Assembly (NCBI GenBank): GCA_036732685.1
Contig: DAINBY010000014.1
Location: forward strand, 2,704-66,703
Direction: 5' to 3'
Origin: Candidatus Cybelea sp.
Lineage (GTDB): Bacteria; Vulcanimicrobiota; Vulcanimicrobiia; Vulcanimicrobiales; Vulcanimicrobiaceae
DNA length: 64,000 bases
In this document: positions 56,057-61,874 of the stretch, piece by piece
Layout of the letters: the number at the start of each line of letters is the position of its first letter
Numbering within the stretch: the stretch's first letter is position 1
Made by a program: the position numbers and the translations under genes
Notes under the pieces: model-generated
What the model saw: only the letters and a program-made list of their open reading frames with translations
What the model was told of the DNA's origin: nothing
Databases searched by the model: none

Positions 56057-56512
56057 ATGAGCGTCCACGTATACGGAATCAATCACATCGCCATCGAGGT
56101 CGACGACGTCGCGAAGGCCGTCGCGTTCTACCAAGACGTGTTCGACCTCGAGAAACTCGACGAGGGTGAGGGCGACGCATTCTTCAAGATCGGCGAGCAT
56201 CAGTTTCTGGCGATGTTCCAAGCGCGTCGAGGAGAGGCCAATCGCACGCGCCACTTCGGGTTGATCGTGCGCGACGAAGCGCAACTCGCCGAAATCCGCC
56301 AGAAACTGACTCAGACGTACGGCATAAAACTCATACCGCCGTTTCGCTGTGACTTCATCGATCCGTTCGGGAATCGAATCCAGGTCGTCGATTTGCACGA
56401 CGAGTCGCTGGTTTGGCTACTCCCGTACCGGGAGGTTCAAGACGTGTTCGGGCCGGAAGCCAAGGCCGACCAACCGTCCGGGAATGCGCGGCAGGAACGG
56501 CAGCCAGCGTAA
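56057..56512 (+). CDS. VOC (glyoxalase/bleomycin-resistance/dioxygenase) family protein
   Basis: ATG at 56057: INHIAIEVDDVAKAVAFYQDVF.......HFGL.V.......DPFGNRIQVVD. The roughly 30-aa C-terminal tail overlaps the convergent monooxygenase gene. Confidence 0.72.
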   Translation: MSVHVYGINHIAIEVDDVAKAVAFYQDVFDLEKLDEGEGDAFFKIGEHQFLAMFQARRGEANRTRHFGLIVRDEAQLAEIRQKLTQTYGIKLIPPFRCDFIDPFGNRIQVVDLHDESLVWLLPYREVQDVFGPEAKADQPSGNARQERQPA

Positions 56513-57637
56513 TAGCGCCGGCAACCGGTGCAGAAAAGGCGCGCGCCCGTTCGTCAGCACGCGACCGATGATTCGGCGCTGAATGAAGAGCTGAATCGCC
56601 TGCGTGAGTCGCGCGGCCGATTCGCGCCGGCGTTGGACGGCGGCGAGATCTTGCTCGTCGACGCCACCGCGCAGGAGCTTGCACGCGAGCATGTTCGCGC
56701 TCGCGACCGCATCTTGAATCGCAAGGTTGATCCCGACGCCGCCGATCGGCGACATCGCGTGCGCCGCGTCGCCGATGCAGAGAAATCCCGGACGATACCA
56801 CCGGCGAAGCCGATTCACGCGAACCGTCAGCAGTTTGACGTCATCCCAGCCCTTTAGCTCGTCGACGCGATCGGCCAGGAAGGGTACGATCGCCGCGATC
56901 TGCGCGTGAAACTCGTCCAATCCGCGCTCGTGCAGCTCGGCGAGCGTCCCCTTTGGAATAACGTACGCGCACTGCCAGTAGACTCCGCGGTCGATAAGCG
57001 CCATGATGCGGCCGTCTCGAATGTATCCGAACGTTTCGTGCGGGTCCTCGGGGCGCTTACTCAGACGCAGCCAGAGAACGTCCATCGGTGCGCCGAGCTC
57101 GACGACGTCGAGACCGGCTCGCCCGCGAAGCAGCGACTCGCGTCCGTCGGCGGCGATCGTGAGATCGGCCCGAACGTCGAGCGCGCCCTCGGGAGTCTGC
57201 GCGCGGACGCCGGCAACTCGTCCGTCCTCCCAAATCAGCTCCTCCGCGCGCGCCTGCATCCGCAAGTCGAAGGCCGGATAGCGCTTTGCCTCTTCGGCCA
57301 GGAAATTGAGAAAATCCCATTGCGGCATGAACGCGACGAACTTGCACCGCGTGGGCAGATGCGTGAAGTCGGCGACGGTCACCAGCGTGTCGCCCAGGTT
57401 GCCGGCTAGCGTCGTTACCTCTTGGTGCGGACGCTTCAGAAAAGAGTCGAGCACGCCGAGCTCGTCCATTACGTCGAGCGTCGACGGATGGATCGTATCC
57501 CCGCGAAAGTCCCGCAAGAAATCGCCGTGCTTCTCGAGCAGCACGGTAGACACGCCTGCGCGCGCAAAGAGCAGCGCCGCCATCATTCCCGCCGGTCCGC
57601 CGCCGACGATGCAGCAGCCGGCGCGCACCTCGCTCAC
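56417..57637 (-). CDS. FAD-dependent monooxygenase (UbiH/aromatic-ring hydroxylase-like)
   Basis: GTG at 57637 (GTGA overlap with the upstream gene's stop): CCIVGGGPAGMMAALLFARAGVSTVLLEK (GxGxxG), RGDTIHPSTL, and LCIGDAAHAMSPIGGVGINLAIQDA (FAD ribityl-binding motif). Confidence 0.8.
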   Translation of the reverse strand: MSEVRAGCCIVGGGPAGMMAALLFARAGVSTVLLEKHGDFLRDFRGDTIHPSTLDVMDELGVLDSFLKRPHQEVTTLAGNLGDTLVTVADFTHLPTRCKFVAFMPQWDFLNFLAEEAKRYPAFDLRMQARAEELIWEDGRVAGVRAQTPEGALDVRADLTIAADGRESLLRGRAGLDVVELGAPMDVLWLRLSKRPEDPHETFGYIRDGRIMALIDRGVYWQCAYVIPKGTLAELHERGLDEFHAQIAAIVPFLADRVDELKGWDDVKLLTVRVNRLRRWYRPGFLCIGDAAHAMSPIGGVGINLAIQDAVASANMLACKLLRGGVDEQDLAAVQRRRESAARLTQAIQLFIQRRIIGRVLTNGRAPFLHRLPALLRWLPFLPRIPGRLVGLGFRPEHVLNLPVRE

Positions 57638-58143
57638 CGAAGCGTTTGCGTGTAGAAGTGGTAGCGGGCGAACTCGGCTTCGCGCTGGTTGACGCGGGCC
57701 TCGCACGCCGCACCGATCTCGTCGACGAAATTTTCGAGCGAACGCTCCGCGATACCGGGCGTGAACGCCGCACCCACGAGCTTGCCGAAAAGCTGCATCG
57801 GCAGCTCGTAGGTTCCTTCCAAGTGGAGCGTCGATTCGCCGAGTGCCTCCAGCGGTTCGACGCCGATTCGCCCTTTGAACCCGGGAAAAGCCGCCGGCAG
57901 ATTCGCCGACGTAAATGCGATCTCGAAGGCGCGCGCTTCGTTAGGGACTCGTTCGACCGCAAGACTAATCGGAACCGCAACGTATCCGACGTCGGGAAGG
58001 TGCAGATCGCCGAAACTCACGTGCAATGCAAACCCACGCCACGGCCCGTCCTGATCGGCGATCGCCTTCAAGAGCTCGGCGAGCGCCTGGGATGCGGAAT
58101 CCGCGGGAACCCCTAACTTTCGTTCGAGCCGTATCTCCGGCAC
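57634..58143 (-). CDS. Hypothetical protein (169 aa), translationally coupled to the FAD monooxygenase
   Basis: MPEIRLERKLGVPADSASQALAELL.... No signal peptide and no recognised motif. The coding call rests on GC3 bias and the 4-nt coupling. Confidence 0.5.
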   Translation of the reverse strand: MPEIRLERKLGVPADSASQALAELLKAIADQDGPWRGFALHVSFGDLHLPDVGYVAVPISLAVERVPNEARAFEIAFTSANLPAAFPGFKGRIGVEPLEALGESTLHLEGTYELPMQLFGKLVGAAFTPGIAERSLENFVDEIGAACEARVNQREAEFARYHFYTQTLR

Positions 58144-58212
58144 GTCAACCTCCTTGCACGCTTCATTCGGGGCCGGGAAGCCGCGGGTCCTCGATTGGGT
58201 AAGACGGAGAGC

Positions 58213-58569
58213 ATGGCTCAGCTTATTGCTCGCTTCCCGGTCGCGGCTACGGTGCTGTTATTGGCCTTCTCAAACCTCTTCATGACCATCGCCTGGTATG
58301 GCCATCTGAAGAACACCAAGAGCCCGCTGGTTCTGGCCATCCTTGCTAGTTGGGCGATCGCGCTGCTCGAGTATTGCTTTCAGGTTCCCGCTAACCGAAT
58401 CGGATACGGCGCGCTGACGCTGACCCAGCTCAAGATCGTGCAGGAGGTCGTAACGCTCGTCGTATTTACCGCGTTCGCATTTCTCGTCTTCGGCCAAACG
58501 CCAAAGTGGAACTACGGCGTGAGCTATCTCTTTATCGTGGGCGCCGTATATTTTGCATTTAAAGGCTAA
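58213..58569 (+). CDS. Small DMT-superfamily membrane protein (DUF486-like)
   Basis: ATG at 58213 preceded by GGAGAG. FSNLFMTIAWYGHLK, LLEYCFQVPANRIGY, LTQLKIVQEVVTLVVF and four TM helices match my recollection of the DUF486 family. Confidence 0.62.
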   Translation: MAQLIARFPVAATVLLLAFSNLFMTIAWYGHLKNTKSPLVLAILASWAIALLEYCFQVPANRIGYGALTLTQLKIVQEVVTLVVFTAFAFLVFGQTPKWNYGVSYLFIVGAVYFAFKG

Positions 58570-58584
58570 AAGAGCGAGCCGCCA

Positions 58585-59127
58585 TCACCGACTTTGCGGC
58601 GCGGCGGCTTGCACGCACGGACCACGCTCTTGCAGATTCCCAAGCGGAACCACGTGAAATGCGTATCCTGGTCCGACCGTGATGTTGGTCCCGTTGATCG
58701 CTTCGTTGGCCGCGATCGCACCGCCAAATGGGAGCACGCGCGCTCCTAGGGCGAGCGCCGACGGATCGTGCGTCAGGATCGAAGCATCGATTGGAGCGCC
58801 GGCAACCTGGACCTCCTGCCCGTTGAGCAGCAGAAAGCGCGGTTCCAAAACGATGATACCGTTGCGCGCTCGATTGCTCGCTGGAATTGCGTTCAGCACT
58901 GCGCCGTAGCCAACCGTGCCGGCCGGGTAGGTGGTGCCGTTGCTCGAGACTCTGGCCGTCGTCTCGAACCGAAAGACTTGGCCGGAAAAGCCCGCGGCGG
59001 AGCTGATCGTCGACAGCATCCGCACGGGGATCAGCGCATAGCATGAAAGTGCCGCATCGCTCGGAGGCGGCCCCACCGCTATACCGAGCGCAAGGAAAAA
59101 CGCAAGAATCGAATACCGTATGGTCAT
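58585..59127 (-). CDS. Secreted hypothetical protein
   Basis: ATG at 59127. Signal peptide MTIRYSILAFFLALGIAVGPPPSDA. No family recognised. Confidence 0.5.
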   Translation of the reverse strand: MTIRYSILAFFLALGIAVGPPPSDAALSCYALIPVRMLSTISSAAGFSGQVFRFETTARVSSNGTTYPAGTVGYGAVLNAIPASNRARNGIIVLEPRFLLLNGQEVQVAGAPIDASILTHDPSALALGARVLPFGGAIAANEAINGTNITVGPGYAFHVVPLGNLQERGPCVQAAAPQSR

Positions 59128-59252
59128 TGGCGCCTCCAGTTGATCGCTTGCAACCAAGCGCTTATTGCCTCCAGGCTTTTTATCGCCTTCAAATCGTCCG
59201 GATAGGTCCGGCGGGAATTGGCACGCCTAGCTGAAATCTTAGGCGTACCTAA

Positions 59253-61127
59253 ATGAGCATCTTTCTTCGGCCGGCATGTGCGGCGATCATCGGCGCGCTT
59301 GCCCTCCTCGTTCTGCTGCCGGCGTCGGCCCTTGCCGACGGCGACGATCAAGCAGCGTCGGCCAGCACGGCGACGCTCGGTCTTCAGCCGATCCGTGGAG
59401 CGATACCCCGAGCAACGGCGGCGGCGGGTGAGTCACGCGTCTTCCAACGTCCGGACGGCGCGTATCAAGCGATTCCGAGCGTTTCGGGCCGGACGAAGAC
59501 GTTCCACATCGCCGAGCGCGTCGCACCCTGGACGCTCGCGCCGGGTCTGACCGTCATGGCAAACACCTATAACGGCGTCGTGCCGGGGCCGGCGCTCGTC
59601 GTGCGCCAAGGCGATTCGGTGGCGATCGACTACGAAAACGACGGCACGACGCCCGACTCGGTTCATATGCACGGCGTGCACGACATTCCGGTAACGATGG
59701 ACGGCGTCGCCGGTATCTCGCAGAAACTCGTGCCGCCCGGCGGTCACTTCATCTATCATTTCGTTGCAAATCAGCCCGGCACGTTCATCTATCACACCCA
59801 CGACGACGAAGCGATGCTCGACTCCGGACTCTACGGCGCGATCATCGTCGAACCGTCGAATCCGCGTCCGGTCGAGCGCGGTCTGGCGCACGACTTTCTC
59901 GAGGTGATCTCGTCCTGGCAGATTCAGAGTGCGGCCGAGAACCATTTCACCTTCAACGGCAAGGAGTATCCGTCGACACGCGCGCTCGACGTTCGCCGCG
60001 GCGAGCACTTTCGCATTCGCTGGATCAATATCTCGGGCGAAGAGTTTCACACGATGCACACGCACGGACACTATCAACAGATCGTCGCGCGTGACGCCGC
60101 GCCCGTCGACTATACCGACGTTGAGGATACCGTGCTGGTCGCGCCGGGACAACGCGTCGACGTCGTGGTCGACGCGAACGCGCAGCCCGGCACTTGGCTG
60201 ATCCATTGCCACGTGCTCGACCATATCGAGGACGCCAACGGCATGCCGAGCGGCCTCATCACCGCCATCCACTATATCGGAACGCCGAACACGCTGCCCG
60301 CGATGTATCGCGCGATGATGCCCGCCGCGCGCCCGCCCGCGCGCGCTTTGAGTTTTTGGACGACGGTGCTGCTGGGAGCCGTGGCCGGCTTTACGATCTT
60401 CCTCGGCCTGCCGATCGCGCGAGCGCGCCGGCTCTCACCGCAGACGGTCGCCCTGCTCAATGCGCTTGCGATCGGCATTCTGCTCTACCTCGTCGTGGAG
60501 ATCGCGCAGAACGCGATCCTTCCGATATCGCGAGGAATGAACGCGTGGCACGTCGGCGCGGGGGCGTTTCCCATCGCCGCAATCGTGGTTTTCATCGCGG
60601 GCTTGCTGATTGGTTTGGTCGGGCTCGGAAGCGCGGCGACGCATTTTGCGCGTCAGGCCGCGTCGCATGCTGAAAACCCGGTCGTTCTCGCCGCCATAAT
60701 CGCGATCGGGATCGGCGCACACAACTTCGGCGAAGGCTTGGCGATCGGTGCATCGGCGGCATCGGGTGCGACCGCGATCGCGGTCGCACTCATCGTCGGC
60801 TTTGGCCTTCACAATGCCACCGAAGGCTTCGGCGTAGCGGCACCGATGGTAGGGAAGGTCGTACCGAGCTGGGCGCAGATCGGCCTTGCCGGGCTCATCG
60901 CCGGCGGCCCGACCTTCATCGGGACGATTCTCGGCTACAGCTTCTACTCGCCAACGCTCTCGGTCTTCTTCCTCGCGATTGCAGTTGGCGCGCTGATCTT
61001 TGTGATCGGAGAGTTATGGAGCGTGCTGCGTCGTACCGGGCTCACGGGTTTCGTGACCGCAACGATGTGCCTTGGCTTCCTCATCGCGCTCGCGACGGAG
61101 CTGTTTCTCGACATCAACGGGGGTTAG
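59253..61127 (+). CDS. Fusion protein: secreted two-domain multicopper oxidase + ZIP (ZupT/GufA-like) metal permease
   Basis: 624 aa. Signal peptide, then the four MCO copper motifs HMHG, YHTH, HTMHTHGH and HCHVLDHIEDANGM within about 340 aa. About 8 TM helices follow with GAHNFGEGLAIG and GLHNATEGFG (ZIP TM4/TM5 signatures). There is no stop between the two parts. Confidence 0.85.
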   Translation: MSIFLRPACAAIIGALALLVLLPASALADGDDQAASASTATLGLQPIRGAIPRATAAAGESRVFQRPDGAYQAIPSVSGRTKTFHIAERVAPWTLAPGLTVMANTYNGVVPGPALVVRQGDSVAIDYENDGTTPDSVHMHGVHDIPVTMDGVAGISQKLVPPGGHFIYHFVANQPGTFIYHTHDDEAMLDSGLYGAIIVEPSNPRPVERGLAHDFLEVISSWQIQSAAENHFTFNGKEYPSTRALDVRRGEHFRIRWINISGEEFHTMHTHGHYQQIVARDAAPVDYTDVEDTVLVAPGQRVDVVVDANAQPGTWLIHCHVLDHIEDANGMPSGLITAIHYIGTPNTLPAMYRAMMPAARPPARALSFWTTVLLGAVAGFTIFLGLPIARARRLSPQTVALLNALAIGILLYLVVEIAQNAILPISRGMNAWHVGAGAFPIAAIVVFIAGLLIGLVGLGSAATHFARQAASHAENPVVLAAIIAIGIGAHNFGEGLAIGASAASGATAIAVALIVGFGLHNATEGFGVAAPMVGKVVPSWAQIGLAGLIAGGPTFIGTILGYSFYSPTLSVFFLAIAVGALIFVIGELWSVLRRTGLTGFVTATMCLGFLIALATELFLDINGG

Positions 61128-61130
61128 AGT

Positions 61131-61874
61131 ATGTACGTACTCGTCGCCCAAGCTGCCGCGACATCACCGGCACCACAAGCAACGTGGAACTCAATAACGC
61201 TAGGTGCGCCGGCATCAACCCTGCGCCCAGTCCTCGGCGATCCGCTACGCATCTTGCTCTTCAAAGACGGGACACGCCGCGTGGCGCGCTATTGGATCCC
61301 CGGTGCGAACTCGACGTACGCGATCGTGATCGAGGAGCGAGGATACGTTACAGGGTTCGATATCTTCGCCGACACGGCACCGACTAGCATTCTTGAGAAC
61401 GTGCCGCCCGATCCGCTGGGCATTCGCTTAGGCGATGCGTTCGAGAACGTGAAGGCTCCGGACATTCCGCTTCGGCGAGGCGTCGACGAAAACGGCGCAC
61501 CGATTCTCACCGGTCGGTTCTCCCCGGCGGTTGGGATGGTGTATTCGTTTCAGGATAACCGCGTGGGCAGCATAGAGTGGGCGACGGCACTTCCGGCCGG
61601 GAAGCCGGAGCTTTCACCGCTAACAGACCCGGGCGGCGAAGCCACGTCGTCGGCGATCCTCGACATGCAAAAGAACGAGATCGACGGTGTCGACTGGGAG
61701 TACCGTTATATCTCCTTCCATCCGTGCACGGATACCGTGCGCTGGAAGCTTCAATCGCAGTCGCTACTCAGTCAGAACGGCCGCGCGTTTGACAAGCTTC
61801 ACGCCGTCTGTCCGCCGACGAAAGCCGAGCGCGACTTCTACTTCGACATCACCAACTATTTCGGCAAACTCTAG
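61131..61874 (+). CDS. Hypothetical protein (247 aa) immediately downstream of the MCO-ZIP gene
   Basis: The ATG lies 3 nt after the preceding stop. MYVLVAQAAATSPAPQATW.... No recognised domain. GC3-rich. Confidence 0.55.
   Translation: MYVLVAQAAATSPAPQATWNSITLGAPASTLRPVLGDPLRILLFKDGTRRVARYWIPGANSTYAIVIEERGYVTGFDIFADTAPTSILENVPPDPLGIRLGDAFENVKAPDIPLRRGVDENGAPILTGRFSPAVGMVYSFQDNRVGSIEWATALPAGKPELSPLTDPGGEATSSAILDMQKNEIDGVDWEYRYISFHPCTDTVRWKLQSQSLLSQNGRAFDKLHAVCPPTKAERDFYFDITNYFGKL

Follow-up and report, generated by a model that had tools for sequence, protein, structure and literature searches.

To our knowledge, the coupling of an oxidase to a permease is how, in the textbook account, fungi and algae take up iron with high affinity, always with Ftr1-type permeases, and the ZIPs (SLC39, TC 2.A.5), a major family of metal transporters found from bacteria to humans, are regarded as divalent carriers that have no redox partner. 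ZIP carriers are known for divalent cations and characteristically carry metals into the cytoplasm, and BbZIP was solved as a dimer. In archaea, the pairing of the multicopper oxidase (MCO) MCO1 with an adjacent ZIP was reportedly noted by Kerou and colleagues in 2016.

Ammonia-oxidizing archaea are already known for unfused pairs of MCO and ZIP genes (PMC7785015, PMC5817080), and for these pairs it has been hypothesised that a metal is oxidised outside the cell and then imported by the ZIP. The Fet3p-Ftr1p system and its relatives are ferroxidase-permease iron uptake systems (PMC11817551), in which an extracytoplasmic MCO is coupled to a membrane permease; Fet3p-Ftr1p is induced when iron is short, and its permease is believed to be fed by the oxidation. 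In FtrABCD, the cupredoxin FtrB acts with the permease FtrC in Fe2+ uptake (PMC11966278), and this system and EfeUOB both combine a periplasmic cupredoxin-fold protein with an inner-membrane iron permease (PMC11966278, PMC9174327). The two-domain MCOs, including mgLAC (2zwn), the Nitrosomonas blue copper oxidase (3g5w), SLAC and CjMCO, are obligate trimers because the trinuclear cluster sits between protomers; type-B members are defined by a T1 copper in the C-terminal domain only, and those characterised are slow laccases whose physiological roles are unknown (PMC13151041).

In Candidatus Cybelea sp., one gene encoding both a two-domain MCO and a ZIP-family permease was identified in a 64-kb window (64,000 nucleotides, the whole stretch of DNA that was analysed). 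The archaeal MCO1 and ZIP, likened to it here by component families, are of the same kinds, are genetically linked and have prompted a proposal alike in kind; however, they are two genes, whereas the Cybelea protein is one polypeptide, and they have been read as a copper uptake system, whereas the signals at the bacterial fusions are of the Fe/Mn type. Compared with Fet3p-Ftr1p, in which the parts are separate proteins, the oxidase is a monomeric three-domain enzyme and the Ftr1 permease carries REXXE motifs, the fusion has covalently joined parts, a two-domain oxidase of what is, by analogy, a trimeric type, and a ZIP with HNxxEG motifs. Because its permease is a ZIP outside the Ftr1 family, the fusion is an analogue and not a member of the Fet3-Ftr1 type. 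FtrABCD and EfeUOB parallel the MCO-ZIP fusion and the cupredoxin-ZIP fusions described below, but are multi-protein systems with Ftr1-type permeases and no ZIP, and FtrB, as a single cupredoxin, lacks a trinuclear cluster at which O2 could be reduced.

Architecture of the fused oxidase and permease

The original prediction of a single ORF joining an MCO to a ZIP was confirmed; the gene encodes 624 aa from ATG to TAG and comprises the following parts.

59253..61127, + strand: complete fusion gene, 624 codons plus TAG (ATG start; full-length homologues)
59253..59336, + strand: predicted Sec-type signal peptide, aa 1-28, cleavage predicted between ASALA and DG, without twin-arginine (by eye)
59337..59477, + strand: low-complexity N-terminal tether, aa 29-75 (AlphaFold pLDDT)
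59478..59867, + strand: MCO cupredoxin domain 1, aa 76-205 (Pfam Cu-oxidase_3)
59664-59675, + strand: HMHG, aa 138-141, in domain 1
59790-59801, + strand: YHTH, aa 180-183, in domain 1
59889..60287, + strand: MCO cupredoxin domain 2, aa 213-345 (Pfam Cu-oxidase_2)
60048-60071, + strand: HTMHTHGH, aa 266-273, in domain 2
60204-60245, + strand: HCHVLDHIEDANGM, aa 318-331, in domain 2
60288..60350, + strand: inter-domain linker, aa 346-366 (per-column conservation, AlphaFold model)
60351..61124, + strand: putative ZIP-family permease domain, aa 367-624, with 8 transmembrane helices (ZupT model, BbZIP profile match)
60720-60737, + strand: HNFGEG, aa 490-495, TM4 metal site of the ZIP domain
60810-60827, + strand: HNATEG, aa 520-525, TM5 metal site of the ZIP domain
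60903-60914, + strand: GGPT motif in TM6 of the ZIP domain

The Sec-type signal peptide, which had also been expected, was judged by eye and is kept in an alignment of orthologous loci, in which it ends between ALA and DADE. Together with an oxidase outside and a ZIP with an extracytoplasmic N-terminus, it gives the consistent topology that had been argued for. In the AlphaFold model, pLDDT falls below 50 at aa 22-51 and again at aa 359-362, on either side of the oxidase domains, and a helix is formed in the linker at aa 348-355; per-column conservation likewise divides the linker into a conserved amphipathic helix (LPAMYRAMMP) and a variable part (AARPPARA).

Both oxidase domains were recognised by Pfam above threshold (Cu-oxidase_3 at aa 98-203, E=1.4e-29; Cu-oxidase_2 at aa 224-326, E=1.2e-25). 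A PDB sequence search returned the two-domain laccases 2zwn (E=3.5e-46) and 3g5w as the best solved relatives, and laccases of the 2zwn/3g5w type were again the top Foldseek matches to the AlphaFold model (target TM-score ~0.8), identity to known two-domain MCOs being 32-34%. All four MCO copper motifs claimed from the first inspection are present, and their residue positions are now assigned. The eight histidines of the trinuclear cluster all occur, in HxH, HxH, HxxHxH and HCH motifs; among 148 full-length fusion sequences, those of domain 1 (H138, H140, H181 and H183) are kept in 147-148 and those of domain 2 (H269, H271, H318 and H320) are invariant. The T1 ligands H266, C319 and H324 are also invariant, and the probable axial T1 ligand M331 is kept in 140 of the 148, at a T1 His-to-Met spacing of +7 compared with the canonical +5. 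Domain 1 lacks a T1 Cys, since Thr182 of YHTH aligns with the Cys of YHCH in 2zwn; 2zwn and 3g5w, with a T1 Cys in domain 1, are of type C, whereas the T1 site of the fusion is in domain 2. Judged by these residues, the oxidase half is a type-B two-domain MCO with a complete set of ligands.

The fusion shares its fold and all copper ligands with the known two-domain MCOs, and a trimer is to be expected of it; by the rule of that family, the fusion protein is probably a homotrimer. In contrast, the known enzymes are soluble and have no attached transporter, and the signal of CjMCO is of the Tat type, whereas that of the fusion is of the Sec type. Asp323, which directly precedes the T1 His324, is kept in 148 of 148 sequences and presumably resembles the residue found in several metallo-oxidases. 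An Asp or Glu preceding the T1 His is common among MCOs, and Asp323 was for this reason judged non-discriminating as a clue to the substrate.

In the C-terminal half, eight long helices were modelled by AlphaFold at aa 367-624, in agreement with the predicted eight or so helices carrying HNFGEG and HNATEG. The proposed check by HMMs for a ZIP domain in this half gave a divided answer: the Pfam Zip model (PF02535) was matched with partial coverage at 23.4-26.3 bits (E=5.6e-6), below its gathering cut-off of 35.1, whereas NCBIfam ZupT aligned at model positions 5-222 of 266 with E=1.2e-9, at 37.9 bits against a curated cut-off of 252, and a profile of the ZIP subfamily (A1) matched BbZIP (5tsa, 8j1m, 7z6m, 8ght) at E ~7e-12 over all eight helices, with positions 7-255 of 262 aligned to BbZIP chain residues 59-306. 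The ZIP fold was checked by profile against the PDB in this way as the 50 listed Foldseek matches of the full model were all MCOs. The assignment is thus based on the ZupT model and the BbZIP profile match, which indicate that the C-terminal half is a ZIP permease of a distinct subfamily, and close relatives exceed the Pfam threshold (P0126, 38.0 bits; P0240, 49.3 bits). HNFGEG and HNATEG align to HNLPEG and QDVPEG of BbZIP. The eight-helix fold is shared with BbZIP (5tsa, 8ght) and E. coli ZupT, and the TM4 HNxxEG coincides with the binuclear metal site of BbZIP; the fusion's ZIP is set apart by its TM5 motif (H-N-x-T-E-G, against Q-D-x-x-E-G in BbZIP), by a GGPT that is invariant in TM6 and by the extreme shortness of the loop between TM3 and TM4. 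Both HNxxEG motifs are invariant in 23 members of the subfamily; in the 148 fusions, H490, N491, E494, H520 and N521 are invariant and E524 is kept in 147.

Recurrence and origin of the fusion

The fusion recurs in more than 120 protein clusters with 79-94% identity, all ~620-625 aa long, and both halves are strongly conserved in the 148 full-length sequences, in which only the linker at aa 358-365 is variable. Among species-representative Eremiobacterota genomes, 25 of 28 fusion loci contain a single uninterrupted frame. An assembly or sequencing artefact, in which a missed stop or indel joins two adjacent genes, might be suspected from a GC-rich hairpin (60326-60345), a type of sequence prone to error that lies exactly at the junction, and from the three species loci with a broken frame. 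However, all three breaks fall inside the oxidase half and not at the junction, the clusters are independent and derive from varied assemblies and technologies, and the ZIP half has no separate start but aligns with stand-alone ZIPs from their first residues, right after the linker. Because the same single frame recurs across assemblies, an artefact is exceedingly improbable, and these comparisons indicate that the fusion is real and selected.

MCO-ZIP fusions were also identified in a second Eremiobacterota clade (clade B), and the reverse order, ZIP>MCO, was found in several phyla, including cultured Kyrpidia, Aneurinibacillus, Alicyclobacillus and Deinococcus. One list of matches contained 99 MCO>ZIP and 23 ZIP>MCO clusters; across both domain orders, hundreds of clusters from several phyla are known, cultured strains included. 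No archaeal locus was present among the best 80 of at least 595 loci in a scan of the genome collection. Other members of the ZIP subfamily carry cupredoxin or cytochrome c fusions. In the domain trees, four fusion groups stand apart among unfused relatives, and on these sequence comparisons the fusion is judged to have arisen several times in bacteria. An origin from adjacent genes that later fused is not supported, because no ZIP adjoins the nearest unfused MCO relatives (P0158, P0144 and P0475) in their gene neighbourhoods. The occurrence of both domain orders, of separate fusion groups and of cupredoxin and cytochrome c fusions suggests that the oxidase and the ZIP are functionally coupled.

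No paper describing or characterising an MCO-ZIP fusion was found in a literature search, and the architecture appears uncharacterised, in line with the first reading; it is not rare, occurring in several phyla. The repeated, independent assembly of a covalent unit from a ZIP and a complete oxidase that reduces O2 would imply a functional coupling that is absent from current ZIP models.

Upstream palindrome and linked regulators

Two elements were identified directly upstream of the fusion gene.

59220..59229, + strand: upstream arm GGCACGCCTA, which includes a half-site of the CCTA(A) type and complements the TAGGCGTACC arm that lies 10 nt downstream
59239..59252, + strand: palindrome TTAGGCGTACCTAA (TTAGG-N4-CCTAA), directly abutting the ATG, a putative one-dimer DtxR/IdeR-family operator

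TTAGG-N4-CCTAA has this single match in the 64-kb window, and the palindrome is found just upstream of the gene at 18 of 25 clade-A species loci and at loci L001 and L002. The upstream arm is kept as GGYRYGCCTA in clade-A orthologous loci. In clade B, the palindrome precedes operons that contain DtxR-family genes, with the same arrangement of arms upstream of the regulator gene. At stand-alone ZIP genes of other phyla, the palindrome is perfect in 8 of 52 cases and has two or fewer mismatches in 22 of 52, the corresponding counts in background windows being 0 and 23 of 1433. The IdeR box is a series of CCTAA repeats lying across the -10/TSS of genes under repression (PMC10317159). The inverted CCTAA repeats found here appear likewise to lie over the promoter/TSS, the overlap with the -10-like boxes just upstream being judged by eye in orthologues; a sigma-70 consensus promoter scan of this stretch gave no match. 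These sequence features lead to the proposal that the palindrome is an operator at which a DtxR/IdeR-family repressor binds as one dimer. The 10-nt inverted arms can pair, and some compensatory changes occur among orthologues. A reading of these arms as an RNA hairpin was set aside as less probable than the protein operator because DtxR-family genes are adjacent, the core is a CCTAA repeat and -10-like boxes lie upstream; an Rfam search of 57500-61500 for riboswitches or other known RNAs returned nothing relevant.

DtxR-family genes, screened for with IdeR and MntR query sequences, adjoin 12 related loci, including all clade-B fusions. Their ligand residues were checked against PDB sequences: the regulators next to clade-B fusions have Met10/Cys102/Glu105/His106, as in IdeR, whereas those next to stand-alone ZIPs are mostly acidic at those positions, as in Mn sensors, Met/Cys marking Fe-type and acidic residues Mn-type regulators (PMC10317159; bioRxiv 10.1101/2024.02.12.579695). 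Clade B is the only group in which the Fe-type residues were observed, and no DtxR-family gene is present in the 64-kb window. In stand-alone Actinomycetota ZIPs of the subfamily, the gene-regulator pairing is the same as that of C. glutamicum MntT (cg1623), a ZIP repressed by the DtxR-family MntR (Baumgart and Frunzke, 2015, as cited in PMC11933003); MntT is, however, Mn-regulated and has no oxidase domain, and its deletion reportedly gave no distinct phenotype. The cross-phylum pairing of palindrome and regulator at this ZIP subfamily is new here.

Fur boxes with 2-3 mismatches of 19 were identified upstream of the ZIP>MCO genes at loci L089 and L091, where the background minimum was 5-6 mismatches and none of 2000 shuffles was as good. 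In Aneurinibacillus soli, an FTR1-family iron permease gene is oriented divergently from the fusion gene, and of the two it is the FTR1 gene that lies closer to a Fur box in the intergenic region they share. Searches for Fur, PerR, Zur and DtxR boxes upstream of the copies in Kyrpidia and Deinococcus found nothing above background. The plasmid copy of Deinococcus sp. KNUC1210 lies in a copper/heavy-metal island, behind CDF transporter and ArsR/SmtB regulator genes and among genes for Cu P-type ATPases, a CsoR-like regulator and a four-helix-bundle copper-binding protein. The Cybelea gene has no metal-related neighbours in the window; only a divergent FAD-dependent monooxygenase gene is syntenic with L001 and L002, and the downstream ORF (61131-61874) has no family match and is not conserved. 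The fusion gene appears, from these sequence signals, to be switched on by Fe or Mn shortage. The suggested substrate range of Fe/Mn/Cu is thereby narrowed by the operator, the linked regulators and the Fur boxes to iron first and manganese second, with copper remaining as a rival.

Candidate functions of the fusion

The explanation preferred here, though tentatively, is redox-coupled uptake by a device that metal starvation induces; the metal is most likely iron, and the device would be analogous to Fet3-Ftr1. The Sec-exported, ligand-complete type-B oxidase would sit on the outer membrane face, tethered by ~20 residues to a full ZIP permease within one membrane protein, probably a homotrimer. 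A metal-dependent repressor of the DtxR/IdeR family would bind, as one dimer, to an operator that overlaps the promoter, so the fusion would be made when sensed Fe2+ or Mn2+ is scarce. At the permease entrance, a redox-active metal, which is most likely Fe2+, would be the substrate of the oxidase and would then be carried in by the ZIP; the protein would thus be a one-polypeptide analogue of Fet3-Ftr1 and FtrABCD, with a ZIP for the Ftr1-type permease. Against iron uptake, oxidation of Fe2+ to Fe3+ would remove the canonical divalent substrate of ZIPs, and the lack of a DtxR-family gene in the window and of a match in the sigma-70 scan also count against the preferred explanation. A uniform iron role is opposed by the Deinococcus copper island, by the Kyrpidia copy without a recognisable box and by the position of the A. 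soli Fur box, and an iron role by the mild induction of the archaeal MCO1 and ZIP pair under copper limitation (PMC7785015).

A copper device, in which the oxidase would convert Cu+ to Cu2+ and the ZIP would import Cu2+, or in which the pair would detoxify as CueO/CopA do, is unlikely. Archaeal MCO1 and its adjacent ZIP are moderately up under copper limitation and import has been proposed for them (PMC7785015, PMC7819960), but that proposal is a hypothesis only; and although the Deinococcus copy is surrounded by copper genes, none flank the fusion in the window, L001 or L002, and the signals that recur beside fusions and ZIP relatives are of the DtxR/IdeR and Fur types, not CsoR, CueR or CopY. 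The best NCBIfam match of the oxidase half is a copper-resistance MCO subfamily, far below its cut-off, and no CueO-type Met-rich segment is evident in the fusion protein sequence. A small probability is likewise given to the ZIP serving the oxidase, as a membrane anchor or perhaps as an outward supplier of copper to the Sec-exported, copper-free enzyme, which would then cooperate with a different partner (an FTR1-type permease, for example) or act as a laccase on phenolics or humics. Sec export delivers unfolded protein, from which it would follow that the four coppers are acquired outside the cytoplasm; most fusion partners of the ZIP subfamily (MCOs and cupredoxins) are copper proteins, FTR1 is the divergent neighbour in A. 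soli, and slow laccase activity is what has been recorded for type-B enzymes (PMC13151041). Yet the metal-site residues, invariant or nearly so in the 148 fusions, exceed what an anchor needs, the cytochrome c fusion does not fit copper loading, the characteristic transport of ZIPs is inward, and Fe/Mn-type regulation is common to stand-alone ZIPs that lack an oxidase.

A guarded manganese importer, in which the ZIP would take Mn2+ and the oxidase would clear the entrance of Fe2+ (or Cu+) that competes or is toxic, sharpening selectivity in acidic, Fe2+-rich soils, is an idea without precedent and is improbable to a similar degree. Most regulators beside stand-alone ZIPs of the subfamily do have Mn-type acidic ligands, as would suit it, and the clade-A palindrome is indistinguishable from that beside Mn-type regulators (e.g., TTAGGCGCACCTAA in L038 and L049); repression of MntT by MntR (cited in PMC11933003) and the automatic JGI name "manganese oxidase" of some relatives also accord with it. 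The regulators linked to MCO fusions, however, have the Fe-type Met/Cys pair, and Fur boxes and the FTR1 neighbour occur at other fusions.

An extension of the preferred iron uptake explanation, that the ZIP subfamily constitutes a class of iron importers, redox-coupled and widespread in bacteria, that has so far gone unrecognised, is doubtful. Three ZIP protomers would lie beneath a trimeric ferroxidase whose T1 sites line a central tunnel, and oxidation would be mechanistically coupled to transport, in a device fused at least three times and with cupredoxin and cytochrome c variants; the ZIP might accept Fe3+, or oxidation might serve as a ratchet or gate. If this were true, the archaeal "copper" pair of MCO1 and ZIP would need reinterpreting as the same kind of device. 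Because the fusion fixes the stoichiometry and names the partner, the archaeal hypothesis becomes directly testable, and by analogy with its oxidase family the fusion would impose a trimer on a transporter whose solved structure is dimeric. Experiments are feasible now because carriers are in culture (Kyrpidia tusciae DSM 2912, K. spormannii, Aneurinibacillus soli and Alicyclobacillus cellulosilyticus). The pairing of operator and regulator across phyla offers a handle on the Fe/Mn regulons of uncultured phyla such as the Eremiobacterota, which abound in peat and in acidic soils. The host of the fusion gene described here is a soil bacterium.

Domain composition and conservation of the fusion gene

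The original prediction of a single open reading frame (ORF) joining a multicopper oxidase (MCO) to a ZIP permease was borne out at exactly 59253–61127 on the + strand, which encodes a protein of 624 aa with the following features.

aa 1–28: putative Sec-type signal peptide as read from the sequence (...ASALA/DG), with no twin arginine
aa 29–75: low-complexity tether
Oxidase half: two MCO-family cupredoxin domains (Pfam Cu-oxidase_3, E = 1.4e-29; Cu-oxidase_2, E = 1.2e-25)
aa 138–141: copper motif HMHG
aa 180–183: copper motif YHTH
aa 266–273: copper motif HTMHTHGH
aa 318–331: copper motif HCHVLDHIEDANGM
Between oxidase and permease: linker of 21 residues
C-terminal half: eight transmembrane helices (AlphaFold model, mean pLDDT 87, pTM 0.67)

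Among solved structures, the two-domain laccases 2zwn (E = 3.5e-46) and 3g5w come closest. In both, the cysteine of the mononuclear copper site (T1) lies in domain 1; in contrast, the window protein has Thr182 at that place and carries its T1 ligands (His266/Cys319/His324, with Met331) in domain 2. Type-B two-domain MCOs are homotrimers whose trinuclear copper cluster sits at the interface of protomers, with the T1 sites turned toward a central tunnel (PMC13151041), and by the definition in that paper the ligand arrangement places the window oxidase in type B.

The Pfam Zip model scored 23–26 bits on the window protein, under its gathering threshold of 35.1, and the ZIP assignment therefore needed care. 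The NCBIfam ZupT model aligned over most of its length (E = 1.2e-9), and a subfamily profile built from the window domain and 22 stand-alone relatives matched the solved BbZIP structure (E about 7e-12) along the full set of eight helices, and the metal-site motifs line up. The Pfam threshold is exceeded by relatives. HNxxEG (TM4), HNxxE (TM5), and GGPT (TM6) are invariant in the alignment of these 23 sequences, and the C-terminal half is assigned here, by its sequence, to a separate subfamily of ZIPs.

When 5.8 billion proteins were searched for homologues, more than 120 clusters were recovered at 79–94% identity, all about 620–625 aa long and labeled Candidatus Cybelea, Baltobacteraceae, or Eremiobacterota, from many assemblies and in several cases from Mb-scale contigs. 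In a survey of one genome per species, MCO-ZIP fusions made up 28 of the best 80 of at least 595 ZIP loci, and the frame was single and uninterrupted in 25 of the 28; the three broken frames (L011, L015, and L025, in species-representative Eremiobacterota genomes) are interrupted inside the oxidase half and never at the junction, and may be sequencing indels in metagenome-assembled genomes (MAGs) or real pseudogenes. Among 148 full-length sequences, the eight histidines of the trinuclear cluster are kept in 147–148, no substitution occurs at the T1 His, Cys, and His, the two ZIP motifs show little or no change, and variation is confined to the linker segment AARPPARA (aa 358–365); this pattern is that of purifying selection on both halves. 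An assembly or sequencing artefact was rejected, since the same single frame is found across clusters and genomes and both halves are conserved.

The codons of this variable linker form a GC-rich, terminator-like hairpin exactly at the MCO/ZIP junction (60326–60345, CGCGCGCCCGCCCGCGCGCG followed by CTTTGAGTTT). Terminator-like sites are not above chance in the region (two found, 1.7 expected), and the hairpin could be what is left of a terminator that once lay between two genes, or simply GC-rich linker codons.

Recurrence of the architecture

To assess the spread of the architecture, representatives at 50% identity were searched exhaustively, and follow-up searches were added. In addition to the clade of the window gene (clade A), a second, deeply diverged Eremiobacterota clade in the MCO>ZIP order (clade B), whose ZIP half is about 45–50% identical, includes Ca. 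Eremiobacter antarcticus. The reverse order, ZIP>MCO, was found in 23 of the 122 clusters of one hit list, as proteins of about 600 aa with every motif present, and is carried by the cultured Aneurinibacillus soli, Alicyclobacillus cellulosilyticus, Kyrpidia spormannii, and K. tusciae as well as by Deinococcus sp. KNUC1210 (on a plasmid), Actinoallomurus, Ca. Methylacidithermus, and proteobacterial MAGs; its presence in cultured strains makes the system testable. Members of the ZIP subfamily occur in at least 595 species genomes, and the stand-alone members among the best 80 of these belong mainly to Chloroflexota, Actinomycetota, and CPR bacteria. In neighbor-joining domain trees without support values, clade A, clade B, the main ZIP>MCO group, and the fusion P0126 are separated by unfused relatives, a placement that hints at a minimum of three fusions.

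The same ZIP subfamily was also observed with a C-terminal single cupredoxin of plastocyanin- or sulfocyanin-like type (P0182, P0220, P0227, and P0236) and with a C-terminal cytochrome c domain and no MCO (P0178), and a further member has a cupredoxin or cytochrome c partner (L066:4498-5580); these ZIP-cupredoxin and ZIP-cytochrome c architectures appear to be undescribed so far. The recurrent and independent fusion of this ZIP to one-electron redox domains outside the cytoplasm is the strongest argument that the two activities work together.

The possibility, raised with the original prediction, that the architecture would prove both common and already characterized held in its first part only: judged from the sequence searches, the architecture is common and not rare, with hundreds of clusters in both domain orders and in several phyla, but the literature search found no paper describing or testing a fused MCO-ZIP protein. 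Automatic database names for the fusion are "ZIP family zinc transporter" or "multicopper oxidase domain-containing protein." An adjacent MCO1+ZIP gene pair is a recognized feature of ammonia-oxidizing archaea, with a hypothetical function (PMC7785015, PMC5817080, PMC7819960); compared by description only, the archaeal pair consists of two adjacent genes, whereas the window encodes one fused protein. The pairing of oxidase and permease is already known as a kind, and the fused form is a variant of it, not a category apart; its value lies in its independent recurrence, in the regulatory link described below, and in its occurrence in cultured strains.

A candidate operator and the sensed metal

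A palindrome overlooked in the original prediction, TTAGGCGTACCTAA, lies directly 5′ of the ATG (59239–59252), with a matching arm, GGCACGCCTA (59220–59229), farther upstream, so that the whole element (59220–59252) reads GGCACGCCTA-N9-TTAGGCGTACCTAA. A single match of this type in 64 kb is not significant on its own, and its significance comes from recurrence across loci. Of 25 clade-A species loci, 18 have a perfect TTAGG-N4-CCTAA at this position, as do the orthologous loci L001 and L002; at the starts of stand-alone ZIP genes in other phyla, the palindrome is perfect in 8 of 52 and has at most two mismatches in 22 of 52, against 0 and 23, respectively, of 1433 background windows. Variants are symmetric (TAAGG-N4-CCTTA), and by eye a −10-like box often lies just upstream. 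The core is found at subfamily ZIP genes of Eremiobacterota, Chloroflexota, Actinomycetota, and Saccharimonadales, often adjoined by a gene of the DtxR/IdeR family of metal-dependent repressors.

Such regulator genes adjoin the ZIP gene in 12 loci, according to a tblastn screen with IdeR and MntR queries, whose conclusions were re-checked against PDB sequences; within the 64-kb window, no DtxR-family gene was found. Regulators beside stand-alone ZIPs are divergent, with the palindrome in between, and those of all clade-B fusions (L030, L034, and L045) lie immediately upstream and co-directional, with the same gene's 3′ end visible in L004; these regulator-fusion operons have the same palindromic element upstream. 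The IdeR box consists of CCTAA repeats, with two inverted repeats per dimer, and overlaps the −10 region or transcription start site of repressed genes (PMC10317159). TTAGG-N4-CCTAA is accordingly read as a candidate one-dimer site for a DtxR/IdeR-family repressor, and by the logic of the IdeR box the gene would be derepressed when the sensed metal is scarce.

In this family, Met10 and Cys102 raise selectivity for Fe2+, and Mn sensors have Asp, Asn, or Glu there (PMC10317159; bioRxiv 10.1101/2024.02.12.579695). The regulators beside the clade-B fusions are of the Fe type (Met/Cys/Glu/His at positions 10/102/105/106), as checked against real IdeR sequences (best matches 7b25 and 1fx7), whereas none of nine beside stand-alone ZIPs has the Met/Cys pair and six of the nine are of the Mn type (Glu at 10, Glu or Asp at 102). 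The Fe-type pair was seen in L030, L034, and L045, and the stand-alone loci compared include L038, L049, L050, L059, L061, and L073. Acquiring the oxidase domain thus goes along with a change in the predicted metal ligands of the sensor, in a small sample of three (plus one partial) versus nine. For the window's own clade, a candidate operator is present, and the putative Fe-type sensor residues come from clade B.

Signals independent of these regulators favor iron as well. Upstream of ZIP>MCO genes, Fur boxes with three (L089/L090) and two (L091) mismatches to the 19-bp consensus were found, against background minima of six and five, respectively; 0 of 2000 shuffles reached the observed scores. 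In A. soli (L093:4038-7812, AP017312.1), the ZIP>MCO gene and a gene for a 500-aa FTR1-family iron permease are transcribed divergently. The 460 bp between them contain a Fur box, TGATAATCATTATCG, that is near-perfect and closer to the FTR1 gene (about 65 nt from its start) than to the fusion gene; the locus is possibly a three-part iron system in a cultured bacterium. Three observations count against a uniform iron role. The ZIP>MCO gene of Deinococcus sp. KNUC1210 (L092:3339-8299, plasmid NZ_CP092195.1) lies inside a copper/heavy-metal resistance island, in an apparent operon ordered transporter, CDF, ArsR/SmtB regulator, hypothetical, fusion gene, hypothetical; no recognizable box was found upstream of the Kyrpidia copy; and copper limitation has a mild effect on the archaeal MCO1+ZIP pair (PMC7785015). 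Ranked by these sequence signals, iron is the most recurrent metal and manganese the second; copper is a less likely candidate.

Proposed mechanism, alternatives, and neighboring genes

The gene, as read from its sequence, joins an exported, ligand-complete oxidase to a ligand-complete ZIP under a candidate promoter operator, and the fusion is recurrent. The best-supported model, held tentatively and at somewhat less than even chances, is a ferroxidase-permease analogue built on a ZIP. By the family rule, the protein would trimerize through its oxidase, because the trinuclear cluster needs two protomers, and three ZIP units would then lie beneath an oxidase cap with the T1 sites toward the central tunnel (geometry of PMC13151041). 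The proposed analogues are Fet3-Ftr1 (PMC11817551) and FtrB-FtrC (PMC11966278), from which the window protein differs in having a ZIP as permease. The oxidase would act on the metal ion at the permease entrance. ZIPs carry divalent ions, and the benefit of oxidation is therefore the weak point of the ferroxidase-permease model; oxidation might work like a ratchet, filter for specificity, gate the carrier, or pass Fe3+ to the ZIP.

A copper device, combining the oxidase with a copper importer or acting as a copper detoxifier, is considered unlikely; it would suit the Deinococcus plasmid island and the mild copper response of the archaeal pair, but the new cross-phylum operator-regulator link points away from the copper reading published for that pair. 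Still less probable is a ZIP that anchors the oxidase and loads its copper. A manganese importer guarded by the oxidase against Fe2+ is rated just as low: it would accord with the Mn-type residues of most regulators beside stand-alone ZIPs, and the Met/Cys pair beside the clade-B fusions argues against it. In C. glutamicum, a ZIP is repressed by MntR, according to a work cited in PMC11933003.

The genes around the fusion in the window are as follows.

56417–57706: divergent FAD-dependent monooxygenase
Within 57634–59157, − strand: 169-aa ORF
58195–58569, + strand: DMT_6/DUF486 membrane protein
Within 57634–59157, − strand: 190-aa secreted-looking ORF
61131–61874, + strand: 247-aa ORF starting 4 nt past the fusion-gene stop codon
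61878–63146, − strand: 422-aa secreted-looking protein with about seven repeats of YSFK.G.DG..P...L....G.LYGTT..GG..G.GT.F

The 247-aa ORF may be co-transcribed with the fusion gene; it matches no Pfam family, and no counterpart was found after the fusion orthologues of L001 and L002. The 422-aa protein, also without a Pfam match, looks from its repeats like a propeller-type repeat protein. The monooxygenase is syntenic with the fusion gene in both orthologous loci: the three small genes that separate the two in the window (57634–59157) are replaced by direct adjacency in L001 and by one 165-aa ORF in L002.
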